Source: a virus (lineage: Duplodnaviria > Heunggongvirae > Uroviricota > Caudoviricetes). Taken from it: DNA of 34,419 nucleotides. Below the pieces are notes generated by a model, which was not told the origin of the DNA, searched no databases, and saw only the letters and a list, made by a program, of their open reading frames with translations. The DNA lies in IMG/VR virus record IMGVR_UViG_2671180847_000009; one strand, given 5' to 3'. How positions within the stretch are numbered: the stretch's first letter is position 1; each line of letters opens with the position of its first letter. Positions 22,365 through 28,633 of this stretch are shown here, in pieces. Both the position numbers and the translations under genes were made by a program.

Positions 22365-23391
22365 AAAGAAAAAATACCCCGTGTTACACGATGGCGTGGC
22401 AAAAAAAACAGCCAGCAAAATGACGTTTATTGAATTTGGTGACCCAGAACCGGTCGCTGCATGGGGCTGTTATTACGGCTCGCTCTGGGATGGCTATAAC
22501 GGCTGGTACACGCCGCCCATTGAGCGCATGGATCTCGCCATGTTGTCCAATATCGCACCGTATCACGGCGCGGTATTGCGTGCGCGCGTCAATATGATCA
22601 TGCAGGGTTTTCGGGGTGGTGGTGGTATGACACACGCCGCCATGGCGGCAGCAGTAACCAATCTGGTGATATTCGGGGATATGGGGTTGCTTAAAGTGCG
22701 CAATGGCTTCGGTCGAGTGGTGCGCCTGCATACGTTACCTTCTCTGTACCTGCGGCGTAACAACGAGGGTGGCACGGTGATTGTGCAGGCGGCACTGGAA
22801 GATCTCGTTTACCCGCCAGGCGAAGTGGTGTTCGTGGCCATTTATGACCCGCAACAGCAGGTTTACGGTGTCCCGGATTATATTCACGGGATGGAATCCG
22901 CCATGCTGAATGTGGATGCCACCCGCTTTCGCCGCAAGTATTACAAGAACGGCGCACATCTTGGTTATATCCTGTATTCCACTGACCCGGATATGGATCC
23001 CGAGCTCGAGGCGGAATTCCGTAAAAAGATAGAGGCGTCAAAAGGGGCGGGCAATTTTAAATCCATGTTTATCAATATACCGGGCGGAGACAAAGAAGGC
23101 GTTAAGGTGATCCCTATCGGGGATTCAGGTACAAAAGATGAGTTCCTGAATATAAAAACCATCAGTGCCCAGGATCAGCTCGTTGCGCACCGTTTCCCAC
23201 CCGGACTTGCCGGCATCATTCCCGCAAATACGGCCGGGCTTGGTGATCCACTGAAATCCCGCGAGGCATATTACAGGGATGAGGTTATCCCGATGCGCCG
23301 CCTGATTATGGAGGGGATCAACAGCGACCCGGATATCAGACGACTGGGGGAGGTGAAATTTATTCTTGATTTTGATGAACCCATGGAGTGA
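22357..23391 (+). CDS. Q: Portal (capsid portal vertex) protein, P2 gpQ-like
   Basis: 344 aa; start overlaps P stop (ATGA); gpQ-family sequence character. Confidence 0.85.
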   Translation: MSKKKKYPVLHDGVAKKTASKMTFIEFGDPEPVAAWGCYYGSLWDGYNGWYTPPIERMDLAMLSNIAPYHGAVLRARVNMIMQGFRGGGGMTHAAMAAAVTNLVIFGDMGLLKVRNGFGRVVRLHTLPSLYLRRNNEGGTVIVQAALEDLVYPPGEVVFVAIYDPQQQVYGVPDYIHGMESAMLNVDATRFRRKYYKNGAHLGYILYSTDPDMDPELEAEFRKKIEASKGAGNFKSMFINIPGGDKEGVKVIPIGDSGTKDEFLNIKTISAQDQLVAHRFPPGLAGIIPANTAGLGDPLKSREAYYRDEVIPMRRLIMEGINSDPDIRRLGEVKFILDFDEPME

Positions 23392-23456
23392 TGTGCGGTA
23401 TGGGGAAAGAGCGGGTAAAATCGGTGGCAGTAAAACGCTGTTCTGGGAGGTGGAAA
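23392..23456. other. Candidate cos (cohesive end) region
   Basis: G-rich segment ggtatggggaaagagcgggtaaaatcggtggc just past Q, where P2 places cos; shares GGGGAAAG with the recalled P2 cos core. Exact cut sites not determinable. Confidence 0.3.
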
Positions 23457-23714
23457 ATGCGCAGACAGAAAGCGCGATGTCATTGCTGCGGTGCACATGC
23501 AGTGATTGAGAAAACAGCCTGGAAAACCGATCAGTTTGCTGATGTGTATTACCGTTGCACCCGTCTCGAGTGCGGACATACCTGGGTGATGAATCTGACC
23601 TACTCGCACACACTGGTGCCCAGCGGGCTGGAGAATGGTGTGTTAAAGCTGTTGATTGAGCGGATGCGTCCGGAAGAAAAACAAATGGCTCTGGAGTTGT
23701 TGCAGGCCGGATAG
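23457..23714 (+). CDS. ogr: Ogr/Delta-type zinc-finger transcriptional activator homologue (85 aa)
   Basis: C-x2-C...Y-x-R-C-x4-C-x-x-T-W spacing matches P2 Ogr (C-x2-C-x22-C-x4-C); start at third ATG (23457) with GGGAGG RBS. Confidence 0.6.
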   Translation: MRRQKARCHCCGAHAVIEKTAWKTDQFADVYYRCTRLECGHTWVMNLTYSHTLVPSGLENGVLKLLIERMRPEEKQMALELLQAG

Positions 23715-23736
23715 CTGACGCGCTTCGCTTGTCCAA

Positions 23737-23784
23737 CCCGGAACGGGCGCACAAAGAATTTGCGCACCCGTTCCGGGTTTTCTT
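23737..23784. terminator. Strong hairpin terminator between convergent ogr-like and Rrf2 genes
   Basis: 11-bp stem cccggaacggg/cccgttccggg (23737-23747 / 23767-23777) followed by ttttctt. Confidence 0.6.
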
Positions 23785-24142
23785 ATTCAATGACAGACAA
23801 CTGATAATTTGTGTCTTCCTGCAGGCTGGTTAAAGAAATATTATCCAGTGCAGCCAGAATAACGTGCTGTGTATATAATCCGGAACATTTCATTGCCCGG
23901 ACAATATCACCAACACTGTAATTTTCTTTTGTCGGGATATATCCACCACCCGGGCCGCGTGTGGCTTTTACCAGGCTACTTTCCCGTAAATATCTGAATA
24001 TTTGCTCCAGATATGACAGTGAAACGGTTTCTTTGCTTAATTGCCGGAGCGAGATTGGCTTTCCGGTGTACTGTTTCACAAATTTAATCATTACCATAAC
24101 TGCAACTGATGCACGCTGGCTTCCGGAATTATCTTTCATCAT
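23783..24142 (-). CDS. Rrf2-family transcriptional regulator (119 aa, non-Fe-S type)
   Basis: S-L-S-Y-L-E-Q-I-F-x-x-L-R...R-G-P-G-G-G-Y matches the Rrf2/IscR HTH signature; only one Cys, so no cluster ligands; start at MMKDNS with GGAAG RBS. Confidence 0.7.
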   Translation of the reverse strand: MMKDNSGSQRASVAVMVMIKFVKQYTGKPISLRQLSKETVSLSYLEQIFRYLRESSLVKATRGPGGGYIPTKENYSVGDIVRAMKCSGLYTQHVILAALDNISLTSLQEDTNYQLSVIE

Positions 24143-24153
24143 GATTACTTCCA

Positions 24154-24441
24154 TTAATGGCATAAATTGATGGAGCGGGTCAGTGAATAAAGAGGCAATA
24201 CATTCCATCCCTTAGAGCGCCAGCTGTCTGCAACATCTTTACTTCTTGTTATCGCCGGTATTCCAATAGGATTATTTGCGTGCATCCATACCACTGGCTC
24301 TGCTTCCAGTGATGCAAGTGCGATTTCCAGTGCGATTAACATATTGTGATCGTCTTCATCAAGACCGAACGGGATGTCTTCGCGCCACGATTTAAACTCT
24401 GTGATTTTACGTTGTAACCATTCTTTGGTAATGGTGGACAT
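24154..24441 (-). CDS. Hypothetical protein (95 aa), unknown function
   Basis: Start MSTITKEW at 24441 with AGGAG RBS at spacing 5; ends 11 nt before the Rrf2 start. Confidence 0.45.
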   Translation of the reverse strand: MSTITKEWLQRKITEFKSWREDIPFGLDEDDHNMLIALEIALASLEAEPVVWMHANNPIGIPAITRSKDVADSWRSKGWNVLPLYSLTRSINLCH

Positions 24442-24455
24442 AGTTACTCCTGTTT

Positions 24456-24770
24456 TCACTTCGGGAAAAACGCCTGAATATTCTTTTTCACCTGCTGCAT
24501 ATGGGGGGCGCTGTCTGCTGCTGGTTGCGCCGGTTTTTCAGGCTGTACTGGTAGCGGTGGCATCCGTATTTCGTCTTCTGACCATTCTGCCAGCGAATAC
24601 GCCAACGCGGGGGTGCGTTTTATAAGAGCCAGTCCGGCCAGAAAAGCCGCGCGTTGTGCGCGGCTGCGTTCGGAGGCTGGCAGGCTGTCGAGGTAACTGC
24701 ACGCCTCCCGTTCGCTCTTGACGACGGCGGGCTTCAGATAGAAACTTATCCGTCTGGTTGGTGTCGTCAT
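24456..24770 (-). CDS. parR: ParR/StbB-like partition adaptor (104 aa)
   Basis: Start MTTPTRR (24770) 5 nt after parM stop; segment ISFYLKP...LDSLPASERSRAQRAAFLAGLAL resembles R1 ParR (IAFKLNP...LDSIPQGERSRLNRAALTAGLAL, recalled). Confidence 0.5.
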   Translation of the reverse strand: MTTPTRRISFYLKPAVVKSEREACSYLDSLPASERSRAQRAAFLAGLALIKRTPALAYSLAEWSEDEIRMPPLPVQPEKPAQPAADSAPHMQQVKKNIQAFFPK

Positions 24771-25734: not shown

Positions 25735-25771
25735 GTCGATTTTCCTTATGTTGATTAATTAATCGGCTACA

Positions 25772-25877
25772 GGATTTTTAAATCCCGTTTTCGCCTGTTT
25801 TGTGCGCGCTTCATATATCGCGGCGCGTTTTTTGCTCATTTACGGGATTTGTGAATCCCGTTTTTGTCTGTTTTTTG
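25772..25877. repeat. Two ~33-bp direct repeats, each with an internal GGATTT/AAATCC inverted repeat (candidate parC-like centromere/operator)
   Basis: Copy 1 at 25772-25804 (GGATTTTTAAATCCCGTTTTCGCCTGTTTTGTG), copy 2 at 25844-25877 (GGGATTTGTGAATCCCGTTTTTGTCTGTTTTTTG), about 28/33 identical; copy 1 lies just upstream of parM, copy 2 inside the 3' end of gene A. Confidence 0.4.
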
Positions 25878-28633
25878 TTTCCACTGGTCAGGCCACTCCG
25901 CAGCAGGTCTGCTTTGCGGCGGGCGCGTTCAGTGGTTTCACTGATTCTCTGTTCGTGCTCTGCGTCGCGGATGGCGCGCAGCATGTCAGAAAGCACGGTA
26001 ACGGGTGTTTTCATGGTGTTCTGGTCTTGCTGAAGTGTGGATGCCAGGCGTGCGGCGGCTTCAGGGTCTGATGCCCCTAGTTGTTCCAGATAGCTGGCGA
26101 CCGGGTTATGGCGGATCTCCGTGCTGCTTACGCCGTGGTTACGGCTCAGGCGTTGCCAGAGCTGCGTGATTCGGCTGTCCGGGCGGGGATCCGGTTTGCG
26201 TACAATTTCAAATCCCTGCGGTGCAATGATGCTGCCGTCAACGTACAGGCTGCCGCCCCGTAACAGGTGCTGCATCTGCTGTTCACCGATATGCAGGCCG
26301 AGAGATTCGGCAGACTTCCGCCATTCTTTAGCGAGTAATTCGTGGTTATCAGGCAAAGGCCGCTGCTGTTTGCGGCTCTGTGTCCAGGTCTGCATTTCAT
26401 CACTGCTGTTTTTTGCCTGTTTGTCACGCAGCGAACGCATCAGCGCCCGGCGTTCGTGCCGTTTCAGTGAGCGCATCCATTCATCCACATCAACGCCGTC
26501 AGGAAGCTGCGGCCACGGTGCTGGCCGTTCTTCCGGCTGTTCTGTCCCGTTGTTGTCCGTTTCCTGTACACGGGGACAGTTATTGCCACGAGTCCAAGGG
26601 GCGGCAGGGCCGCCCTGAAGGTCAAAACCATTTTCGTGGGCGTTGTCTTCTGGTTCTGGTTTACGTCTTACCAACTTCCAGTTATCCGGATGCGTGCACA
26701 CACGGGAGGATTCCCCGATGAGTGGTGACCAGATCCCGTAAATCTGTACGCTCTGTTCGCCGTAATCGTTCAGCTCATCTGCGAGGTCGTAGGCGGTGCG
26801 AATCAGGTAGTCCTTGCGTGGAACAAGCACGCCACCCTGTTTTTCAATGTAGGTGGCAAAACACCCGGCATCGGCGGCAGCGAGTACCGCATCCATTGCA
26901 TCATCTTTCAGCCGTTGCGGGCCTTCCGGATTGCGTGCCATCTGGCTGGCAAGGCGGCGCAGTTCACGCCACACCTGACGGGAGGGGATGCCAAAGAACT
27001 GGAACTGACGGACCCGGTGAAGGCGCGCCCAGCCGATGGCGCGCTCCACGCTCTCGGCCATTGATTTTCCGGTTTCGTGGTCAACGCGTGGCTTGCCCGT
27101 TTTCGGGTCGATGCCATCCACGGCGCGGCTGTCCAGGTTCTTTCCGATGTAGGTGGCGATGTAGCTGGTTGGTGTGCCTTTTGAGCCGTCGACATACTCC
27201 GCCTTAAAACGCGGAGTTATGTCATCGCCCAGCTCGTGGCGGTCCTCCTGAATGGCAATATCGCAGACGTGGGACACGATGGTTTCAATCTCGTCCGGAT
27301 GTGCAAAGACCATCATATGCCAGTGCACAGTGCCGTCATGGTGAGGCTCCACCGTGCGGATGCCATACCAGCGCAGGCCGTCGCGGTTCAGTTTTTTGCG
27401 GACCGCCGCAAAAAACGTGTTAACCAGGTAATCGCTGGAGTCGCGCATGGTGGCCCCGTTCCATTTGGGGTTCGGATGACCGTTCTCCGTTGTTGCGTGG
27501 TATTTTGACGGGCAGGTGACGGTCAGAAACACCGCTCTGTCGCCACGGGCTTCGGCCAGAAGTTCCAGTCCCTTCATGGTGGCCATCATTTCTGCCTTAC
27601 GGTGAACCGGGTTACTTACTCCCGCGTAATACACCGTCTCGAGATCAATCGTGAACCCGTCTTCATTTTCCAGCATGAAACTTTTCAGGAAATCGCGTGT
27701 TTTCTCGCGCTGTGCGCGAAACTCGCTTAACGCGTCCTGGCTCAGATAGGGCGATGTTTTTCTGGAAACCAGACAGGCGGCGCGGAGTTGTTCTTCTCTC
27801 CACTCGCAACGTAACAACCACAGTTTGCGTTTCCACCATTCCGCACAGGTCAGGCGAAGGATTGCGCCCGGCAGCAGCTCCGTGTCTGGTTCGTTTCTCC
27901 GGTCTTTGTCTGTTGTCAGTGTGTCATAATGCGGCGGCGTGACGTGCAGGTGTAACGCCATGCGAGCCAGCATCTGATATGCCTTCAGTGCCACCTCCAT
28001 GGTCAGCTCGCCATCGGTCGCGCCAAAGCCATCGCAGAGTGTTTCGAAGGTGCTGCTGAACATCGCCGCCGTCATGGTGGCCAGCGTCTGTATCTGGTGT
28101 TTGTTGAGCTGCGGCAGGTAAAGCAAATCGTCCAGGCGTTCGCGTCCGGCAAGGGAGCGATACCCCTGTGTCAGCCAGCGGCTGTCGGTGCGATCCAGAC
28201 GTTCGAATATTTTGCGCAGGGTTCCGCGTGCATAGCGTTCCGCCTGCCAACTCTTTTTGCCTTTCCGGCGATCGGCTTCCTGTTTTTTGCGCAGGAAGGA
28301 GAGGTGGCGAATAAGCGGATCGCGCAGATAGGATGGCAGCAGGCGCAGCGAGGCCATGGCTTCATCCACCGCACCGCGTGCCTGTTTTCTGGCTTCTCTG
28401 GCCAGTGTGATGGTTTTGTCCTGTTTTTCCTGTGCGTCCAGGCTTTTATTAATCAGGTTGCCCAGCGGTGTGGCGGAGAACGCCGCATCAGCCATTTCCT
28501 GGCGGCGCTCGTTCTCTGCCCGGTAGGCATCCAGCCAGGAGGAAAGTGCGGATTCAGGAGCGGGGATCTCCGTTCCTTCACGCCCCACTGCGTGGCGCGG
28601 TTGTTGCCAGTCCCTGATGTACTCTGTCGTCAT
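25811..28633 (-). CDS. A: Replication initiation endonuclease, P2 gpA-like (rolling-circle Rep), 940 aa
   Basis: HUH motif in TVEPHHDGTVHWHMMVF and catalytic-Tyr region GTPTSYIATYIGK; located where P2 gene A lies relative to cox and Q. Confidence 0.8.
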   Translation of the reverse strand: MTTEYIRDWQQPRHAVGREGTEIPAPESALSSWLDAYRAENERRQEMADAAFSATPLGNLINKSLDAQEKQDKTITLAREARKQARGAVDEAMASLRLLPSYLRDPLIRHLSFLRKKQEADRRKGKKSWQAERYARGTLRKIFERLDRTDSRWLTQGYRSLAGRERLDDLLYLPQLNKHQIQTLATMTAAMFSSTFETLCDGFGATDGELTMEVALKAYQMLARMALHLHVTPPHYDTLTTDKDRRNEPDTELLPGAILRLTCAEWWKRKLWLLRCEWREEQLRAACLVSRKTSPYLSQDALSEFRAQREKTRDFLKSFMLENEDGFTIDLETVYYAGVSNPVHRKAEMMATMKGLELLAEARGDRAVFLTVTCPSKYHATTENGHPNPKWNGATMRDSSDYLVNTFFAAVRKKLNRDGLRWYGIRTVEPHHDGTVHWHMMVFAHPDEIETIVSHVCDIAIQEDRHELGDDITPRFKAEYVDGSKGTPTSYIATYIGKNLDSRAVDGIDPKTGKPRVDHETGKSMAESVERAIGWARLHRVRQFQFFGIPSRQVWRELRRLASQMARNPEGPQRLKDDAMDAVLAAADAGCFATYIEKQGGVLVPRKDYLIRTAYDLADELNDYGEQSVQIYGIWSPLIGESSRVCTHPDNWKLVRRKPEPEDNAHENGFDLQGGPAAPWTRGNNCPRVQETDNNGTEQPEERPAPWPQLPDGVDVDEWMRSLKRHERRALMRSLRDKQAKNSSDEMQTWTQSRKQQRPLPDNHELLAKEWRKSAESLGLHIGEQQMQHLLRGGSLYVDGSIIAPQGFEIVRKPDPRPDSRITQLWQRLSRNHGVSSTEIRHNPVASYLEQLGASDPEAAARLASTLQQDQNTMKTPVTVLSDMLRAIRDAEHEQRISETTERARRKADLLRSGLTSGNKKQTKTGFTNPVNEQKTRRDI

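Follow-up and report, generated by a model that had tools for sequence, protein, structure and literature searches.

The region upstream of parM, which encodes an actin-like partition ATPase, was analyzed in the viral record IMGVR_UViG_2671180847_000009, a stretch of DNA of 34,419 nucleotides that is referred to here as the window. The element of interest is a pair of direct repeats between parM and the replication gene A, one copy of which lies inside the 3' end of gene A. Gene A, parM, and parR are all on the minus strand, and their products are those that a first-pass annotation of the sequence had assumed: the replication endonuclease gpA (PF05840), ParM (StbA_N plus the C-terminal domain), and ParR (PF10784). 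Residues 2 to 316 of ParM matched structures of ParM from plasmid R1 (9e-93), as expected for the actin-like ATPase of a type II partition locus. The small ParR adaptor encoded directly downstream, also a feature of type II loci, was recognized by PF10784, by phrog_2515, and by alignment with plasmid ParRs. It has a predicted N-terminal ribbon-helix-helix-type ParR/StbB domain and a conserved C-terminal tip, and its N-terminal region and C-terminal KKN motif could be aligned with R1-type and other plasmid ParRs.

A search of the window for repeats returned one direct-repeat family, made up of two 37-nt copies with 84% identity whose starts are 73 bp apart. The first-pass annotation had described these as 33-bp copies of about 85% identity, each with an internal dyad, and the pair proved to be real and slightly longer. 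In both copies the dyad has the form GGGATT-N4-AATCCC. A motif search, which the annotation had suggested as a check, confined the core GGATTTNTNAATCCCGTTTT (18 specified bases) to the two copies: they were the only matches in the window, even when three mismatches were allowed, compared with 0.04 matches expected from shuffled sequences, and none of 100 shuffles yielded two or more. Two AAAAC(A/G)G units are present in each copy on the parM-sense strand, and 4 of the 24 minus-strand occurrences of AAAAC[AG]G in the window fall within the 110-bp repeat region. Copy 1 sits in the 76-bp gap that extends from the A stop codon (25811-25813) to the parM start (25734), and the repeats end 34 bp ahead of the parM ATG. 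Copy 2 is located within the 940-codon reading frame and does code for the last residues of gpA, as had been claimed.

Table 1. Positions of genes and sequence elements in the A-parM-parR region of the window
Feature	Position	Strand	Description
Gene A, replication endonuclease, 940 amino acids	25811-28633	minus	Pfam Phage_GPA PF05840, 1.9e-129
Variable 3' tail of gene A	25811-25905	minus	last ~31 codons including stop; from the cassette side of the recombination junction
Repeat copy 2	25841-25877	minus	TACGGGATTTGTGAATCCCGTTTTTGTCTGTTTTTTG; embedded in the final gpA codons, ~919-931
Dyad of copy 2	25842-25861		ACGGGATT/AATCCCGT
Spacer between copies, 36 bp	25805-25840	minus	A stop codon 25811-25813, one phased A-tract, GATATAT motif
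Repeat copy 1	25768-25804	minus	TACAGGATTTTTAAATCCCGTTTTCGCCTGTTTTGTG; intergenic, between A stop codon and parM start
Dyad of copy 1	25769-25788		ACAGGATTT/AAATCCCGT
Whole conserved cis-region	25735-25880	minus	both repeats, spacer, ATTAATCAA motif, Shine-Dalgarno
parM, actin-like partition ATPase, 319 amino acids	24775-25734	minus	StbA_N PF06406, 1.8e-82; ParM C-terminal domain PF21523, 1.3e-68
parR, 104 amino acids	24456-24770	minus	PF10784, 4.5e-24; phrog_2515 'partition protein', 2.4e-44

Escherichia phage P88 and its relatives (Xuanwuvirus, Peduoviridae) match the segment at 96% identity and have the order A-parM-parR in common with it; judged from its sequence, the window is a P88-like, P2-like prophage. 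The public records that were inspected carry annotations for ParM and ParR, and in that of P88 the site of the repeats is without any annotated feature. The A-parM junction was found at a coverage of at least 80% in 1298 of the 5426 complete Escherichia coli genomes (~24%), mostly on the chromosome. A P88-like prophage with a 100% identical ParM is also inserted in the IncHI2 Salmonella plasmid pS2122_1 (locus L002; NZ_CP110658.1, ~113.7-126.7 kb), which bears a second ParM-like locus of its own (two places in the record).

Association of the repeats with the parMR cassette

In order to assign the repeats to gene A or to the partition genes, loci that differ on one side of the junction were informative. 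In two E. coli prophages, STEC384 (L006) and that of isolate 624 (L007), gpA is 86 to 88% identical to that of the window over the last 163 amino acids and is invariant up to ...ERARRKAxLL. The slot taken by parMR in the window is filled in these prophages with other cargo, either an AAA ATPase and an S8 peptidase or a Dam methylase and an AAA ATPase. DNA homology to the window ends at ~25905, the A tails beyond that point are unrelated, and the repeats are absent. The first-pass annotation had named parMR-less phages with the same repeats as evidence that would count against its reading; these two lack them. The cargo regions (positions 1-3288 of L006 and 652-3212 of L007) may represent defense-type cargo at the A-portal hotspot of P2.

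Loci with divergent sequence on the gene A side retain the repeats. Locus L044 has a different open reading frame of 155 amino acids (phrog_21788, 1957-2424) between a shorter gpA reading frame (651 amino acids) and parM; it runs into copy 2 and terminates in the same ...KQTKTGFTNPVNEQKTRSDI tail (20 amino acids) as gpA of the window. In a prophage of Hafnia (L092) gpA is only ~62% identical and the A stop codon falls at the center of the copy 2 dyad, and both copies are kept, 73 bp apart. Identity between the window and this locus is 78% in the repeat block and 87.6% in parM, versus 56 to 61% in the adjacent A sequence. When six sequences were aligned, the conserved block began at about window position 25880 and continued into parM. 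The GATATAT motif of the spacer is also present in the Hafnia L092 spacer; GATATA(T/A) and ATTAATCAA were noted as conserved motifs.

The tail of gene A has not evolved like the remainder of the gene. Among 67 distinct close sequences, nucleotide diversity in the gene A body was 0.070 at third, 0.024 at second, and 0.016 at first codon positions. In the tail (25814-25905) first positions (0.068) were about as variable as third positions (0.052). Because relatives with the same gpA and no parMR lack the repeats, relatives with divergent upstream sequence keep them, and the A tail does not show the usual contrast in constraint between codon positions, comparison of these sequences assigns the repeats to the cassette and not to gene A. 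Copy 2 would then encode the last gpA residues because the cassette starts directly with copy 2 and the upstream gene reads into it until a stop codon is reached, so that the A tail is a by-product of reading into the cassette. The earlier proposal that insertion of the cassette had remodeled the end of the A gene is supported by tails that diverge after ...ERARRKAxLL, by the unusual pattern of codon constraint, and by the Hafnia stop codon within the copy 2 dyad. The locus shows how exchange of cargo at the A-portal hotspot of P2 can rewrite the C-terminal tail of a replication protein without apparent harm; where these genes are annotated as 'replication endonuclease', the final ~30 codons are cassette DNA and not conserved protein sequence.

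Both copies were present in every one of ~80 loci whose ParM is 99 to 100% identical to that of the window. The exact dyad, GGGATT-N4-AATCCC, occurs only at those two sites per ~6-kb locus, 72 to 74 bp apart. The dyad centers are variable: copy 1 has either TTTAAAAAT or TTTCAGAAT, and copy 2 has either ATTCACAAAT or ACTCACGAAT. The AAAACAG, GGATT, and AATCC blocks are nearly invariant. In the loci examined, the repeats were inherited together with parMR and were absent where parMR was absent, as expected for a parC site.

Distant cassettes and the ParR recognition strand

Outside this family the nearest relatives of ParM are encoded in P2-like prophages, always in the slot between the gpA and portal genes: Plesiomonas (63% identity), Hafnia (62%), Serratia (58%), and Enterobacter (54%). 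The closest plasmid ParMs are at most 52% identical. This distribution suggests that the phage-borne ParMR lineage is a long-standing one; cassettes occur in Salmonella as well. A scan of GTDB genomes for intermediate relatives yielded three near-identical loci only, and the distant cassettes came from a protein search and contig look-ups.

In the Plesiomonas (L095) and second Hafnia (L096) loci the repeat pair directly upstream of parM can be recognized from its layout. The elements are GCGGGACAACAAAAACCCGAAATAGC and GCGGGACAACACTAACCCACAATGGC in L095, 72 bp apart with the first in the 3' end of A, and GGGATTGAGGAAACCC and GGGTTCATTAAATCCC in L096, 73 bp apart with the first inside an upstream open reading frame whose stop codon falls within the second copy. 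As in the window, there are two GGG-N10-CCC elements with a spacing of 72 to 73 bp (seven helical turns) that abut parM, and the first is located in an upstream coding end. These loci differ from the window in the inner sequence of the elements and do not form a stable hairpin: the inner stem is not kept, the predicted stems comprise 3 to 5 bp and enclose loops of 10 nt (-2.7 to -5.6 kcal/mol), and the T-runs of the plus strand are gone. The Serratia (L097) and Enterobacter (L098) cassettes share with the window the gpA-portal slot and a repeat pair directly upstream of parM, but theirs is a 19- to 20-bp inverted repeat, 28 bp apart, and the ParR recognition strand is different.

The type of repeat changed together with the N-terminal strand of ParR. 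Direct GGG-N10-CCC repeats accompany TRR(I/V)SFYL, the inverted repeats of Serratia and Enterobacter accompany NRKISFYL, and the iterons of an R1-type plasmid accompany RRTIAFKL. The repeats of the window were not found at close plasmid ParMR loci; the nearest plasmid ParMs (at most 52% identical) have different repeats upstream. On plasmid p19-7P3, GGTTTTTGTCTGTATTTTT (L003 1364-1401, upstream of a ParM of 52% identity) resembles window 25859-25877 (CGTTTTTGTCTGTTTTTTG) on the opposite strand relative to parM. This likeness is suggestive only and may reflect a shared ParR half-site or mere T-rich iteron composition.

Homology to P88 ends inside parR, at window 24573-24618, and a second recombination boundary lies within the 3' half of parR (24456-24620). 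Among E. coli prophages the ParR linker is hypervariable (46 to 93% identity overall), and no variation was seen in the N-terminal strand TRRISFYLKP or in NIxxFFPE, the C-terminal tip. Downstream of parR, the cargo (23125-24459), which is unlike the corresponding block of P88, consists of an open reading frame of 101 amino acids (phrog_660/60, function unknown), a 141-amino-acid Rrf2-like winged-helix protein, and an open reading frame of 221 amino acids for which no family match was obtained. PADLOC annotation of defense systems gave no matches in the cassette or the neighboring cargo. A ParM of 98% identity, with both repeats, was also encountered on a contig labeled Vagococcus sp. WN89Y (L089); its attribution to a Gram-positive bacterium is probably the result of contamination of the assembly with enterobacterial DNA.

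Possible roles of the repeat pair

Work by Dam & Gerdes in 1994, summarized in PMC2241845, dealt with the type II ParMRC partition locus of plasmid R1 and its parC. We consider it likely that the repeats and spacer of the window (~25735-25880) are the corresponding element of the phage cassette, a ParR-binding centromere/operator of the parC type, and the comparative evidence presented above favors the parC analogue that the first-pass annotation had put forward, as a predicted ParR site. By analogy, ParR binding, centromere activity, and any autoregulation would be expected here, and the site probably also serves as an operator for ParR. The cassette, of type II, would be cargo that a P88-like, P2-like prophage carries in the slot from gene A to the portal gene. 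In a mechanism modeled on R1, the GGGAT / ATCCC half-sites and the AAAAC(A/G)G units next to them would be contacted by ParR dimers through TRRISFYLKP, the strand of the N-terminal ribbon-helix-helix region. With A-tracts phased at 10.5 bp, the half-sites would be presented on one face of intrinsically bent DNA, and binding would generate two protein clusters seven helical turns (73 bp) apart. ParM filaments would be captured by the conserved C-terminal tip of ParR.

Several observations weigh against this interpretation. The site consists of two 37-bp dyad-containing units over 110 bp, versus the ten tandem direct 11-bp iterons over 159 bp of R1, and the division of the units into sub-iterons is our own parsing. 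No sigma-70 promoter was found between or after the copies, which weakens the operator half of the analogy. In the close E. coli family the two repeats, with nucleotide diversities of 0.032 and 0.074, are overall no less variable than synonymous sites (~0.05-0.07), and only the short AAAACAG, GGATT, and AATCC blocks are invariant. The co-variation of ParR strand and repeat type is based on three groups only. The prophage integrates (there is an integrase open reading frame at the end of the window, and most copies are chromosomal), so that the need for a centromere is not obvious, and a literature search on ParM in P88, P2-like phages, and Peduoviridae found no paper on the repeat site.

The copies had been described in the first-pass annotation as flanking a probable parM promoter, for which the scans offered no support. 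A consensus scan detected no sigma-70-like site between the copies, and the best score in a relaxed sigma-70 scan was 6.5/12, with nothing convincing in five sequences from four parMR lineages. Repeats that flank a par promoter, as expected of an operator, were therefore not apparent from sequence scans. The parM gene may be read through from gene A, because no terminator follows A on the sense strand.

It is also conceivable, though unlikely, that some protein besides ParR uses the repeats as operators or architectural sites, for example a phage regulator of the Cox or Ogr type, the downstream Rrf2-like protein, or a host nucleoid protein, and that they control the cargo without functioning as a centromere. 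Dyad symmetry with a variable center is typical of the sites of many dimeric regulators, and bending by A-tracts would suit binding of the IHF or Fis type. However, the repeats accompany parMR in different hosts, on different phage backbones, and beside different downstream cargo, and their type shifts together with the recognition strand of ParR. The Rrf2-like gene lies outside the conserved block, since P88 homology ends inside parR, and a regulator encoded by the phage backbone is difficult to reconcile with phages that have the same gpA and neither parMR nor repeats.

The dyads could instead function as hairpins, either as tandem Rho-independent terminators or insulators on the plus strand that keep antisense or late read-through out of gene A, or as hairpins in the sense-strand mRNA through which the A-parM transcript is processed or stabilized. 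Copy 2 scores as terminator-like on the plus strand, where an 8-bp stem encloses a 4-nt loop and is followed by TTTTTGTCTG. On the sense strand the folding energy of each dyad is -7.5 to -9.7 kcal/mol. The 136-nt region gives more stable folds than shuffled sequences on both strands (minus, z = -3.6; plus, z = -2.9), and pairing is retained in some variants via G-U wobble. Nevertheless, such a role seems quite improbable. The neighboring genes are all on the minus strand, and the hairpins cannot terminate A or parM transcripts because A-rich sequence, rather than a U-run, follows them on that strand. The terminator-like match on the plus strand was obtained for copy 2 only, and the Plesiomonas and Hafnia loci L095 and L096 have lost the stem and the T-run yet keep the position, the spacing, and the GGG/CCC ends, which disfavors the plus-strand hairpins that the first-pass annotation had offered as its alternative. 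GGGACT, a common variant that changes F to L in the A tail, breaks a pair on the sense strand, and Rfam gave no match at E ≤ 1. The strand favored by wobble-preserving changes differs from one copy or variant to another, with neither the plus nor the minus strand consistently protected; compensatory changes of this kind are uninformative and offer no evidence of a strand-specific RNA structure. Pairing is also possible between the two dyads, which are palindromic and alike (80% complementarity over 20 nt), and the minimum-energy fold of the plus strand employs this long-range pairing.

P2-type phages (P2 and 186) have their origin inside gene A, and the breakpoint of homology with the cargo variants is only ~25 to 30 bp upstream of copy 2, but it is very improbable that the repeats are part of the gpA origin or nick site, or functionless scars or module junctions left by cassette exchange at the A-portal hotspot: they are not the origin of the cognate gpA because the same-gpA prophages L006 and L007 lack them, and a scar would have decayed, whereas the two copies, the fixed 72- to 73-bp spacing, and the GGG/CCC ends persist at 62 to 63% ParM identity.

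If the repeats are the centromere of the cassette, they would represent a compact parC of ~110-146 bp for a ParMR family whose closest relatives are all phage-borne (ParM is 54 to 63% identical in other P2-like prophages versus at most 52% on plasmids). As a more speculative possibility, which we regard as doubtful, ParM, ParR, and the repeats may constitute a working DNA segregation machine that integrating P2-like phages keep, and that either works on the phage circle after excision or during replication or serves as a weapon of incompatibility directed at plasmids and phage-plasmids with related centromeres. The dyad centromere would be tolerated in the end of an initiator gene, and binding of ParR could modulate read-through from A into the cargo. 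The region offers a concrete fragment with which to ask why a segregation system of the plasmid type is retained by a temperate phage that integrates, and whether resident plasmids suffer interference from it.

Comparison with plasmid partition sites

In plasmid R1, parC spans 159 bp: a promoter core of 39 bp is flanked on each side by a set of five 11-bp iterons, every iteron is occupied by a single ParR dimer, and the DNA has strong curvature (PMC2241845). The phage site resembles R1 parC in being located immediately upstream of parM, with parR following, and in having two clusters around a short core (36 bp in the phage and 39 bp in R1), the arrangement expected of a parC. Read on the parM-sense strand, the R1-type parC of plasmid pETEC_80 (L005) has A-rich iterons with the core AAAACCC. 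The phage site shares the richness in A on that strand, and its half-site, AAA(A/T)CCC, resembles this core. A-tracts were phased at 10.5 bp in both, with a normalized power of 3.19 for the phage site and 3.99 for the R1-type site, versus 0.96 to 1.63 for coding controls. Shuffling destroys the A-tracts, which makes the figure of 0 of 2000 shuffles rough and the comparison with coding and R1-type sequences the fairer one. The phage ParR is ~35% identical to R1-type ParR and has in common with it the N-terminal strand/helix region and the C-terminal KKN tip.

The two systems differ in several respects. A clear promoter is present in the R1 core and none is detectable in the phage core. One of the phage clusters overlaps the coding end of the upstream gene, and the element that carries the site is an integrating phage rather than a plasmid. 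As for the helically phased iterons by which the R1 site is defined, A-tracts at 10.5 bp and four AAAAC[AG]G units were seen in the phage, but the strongest repeat is the 37-bp dyad unit, within which the sub-iterons have a degenerate sequence.

Among solved structures, the phage ParR matched only that of ParR from the par1 locus of plasmid pB171 (PDB 2JD3, StbB), in a weak match (E = 0.009) over residues 6 to 62. The likeness to pB171, known at the level of the protein, extends to membership in the same Pfam family, PF10784, and the match covers the DNA-binding N-terminal domain, the part of ParR that is predicted to contact the repeats.

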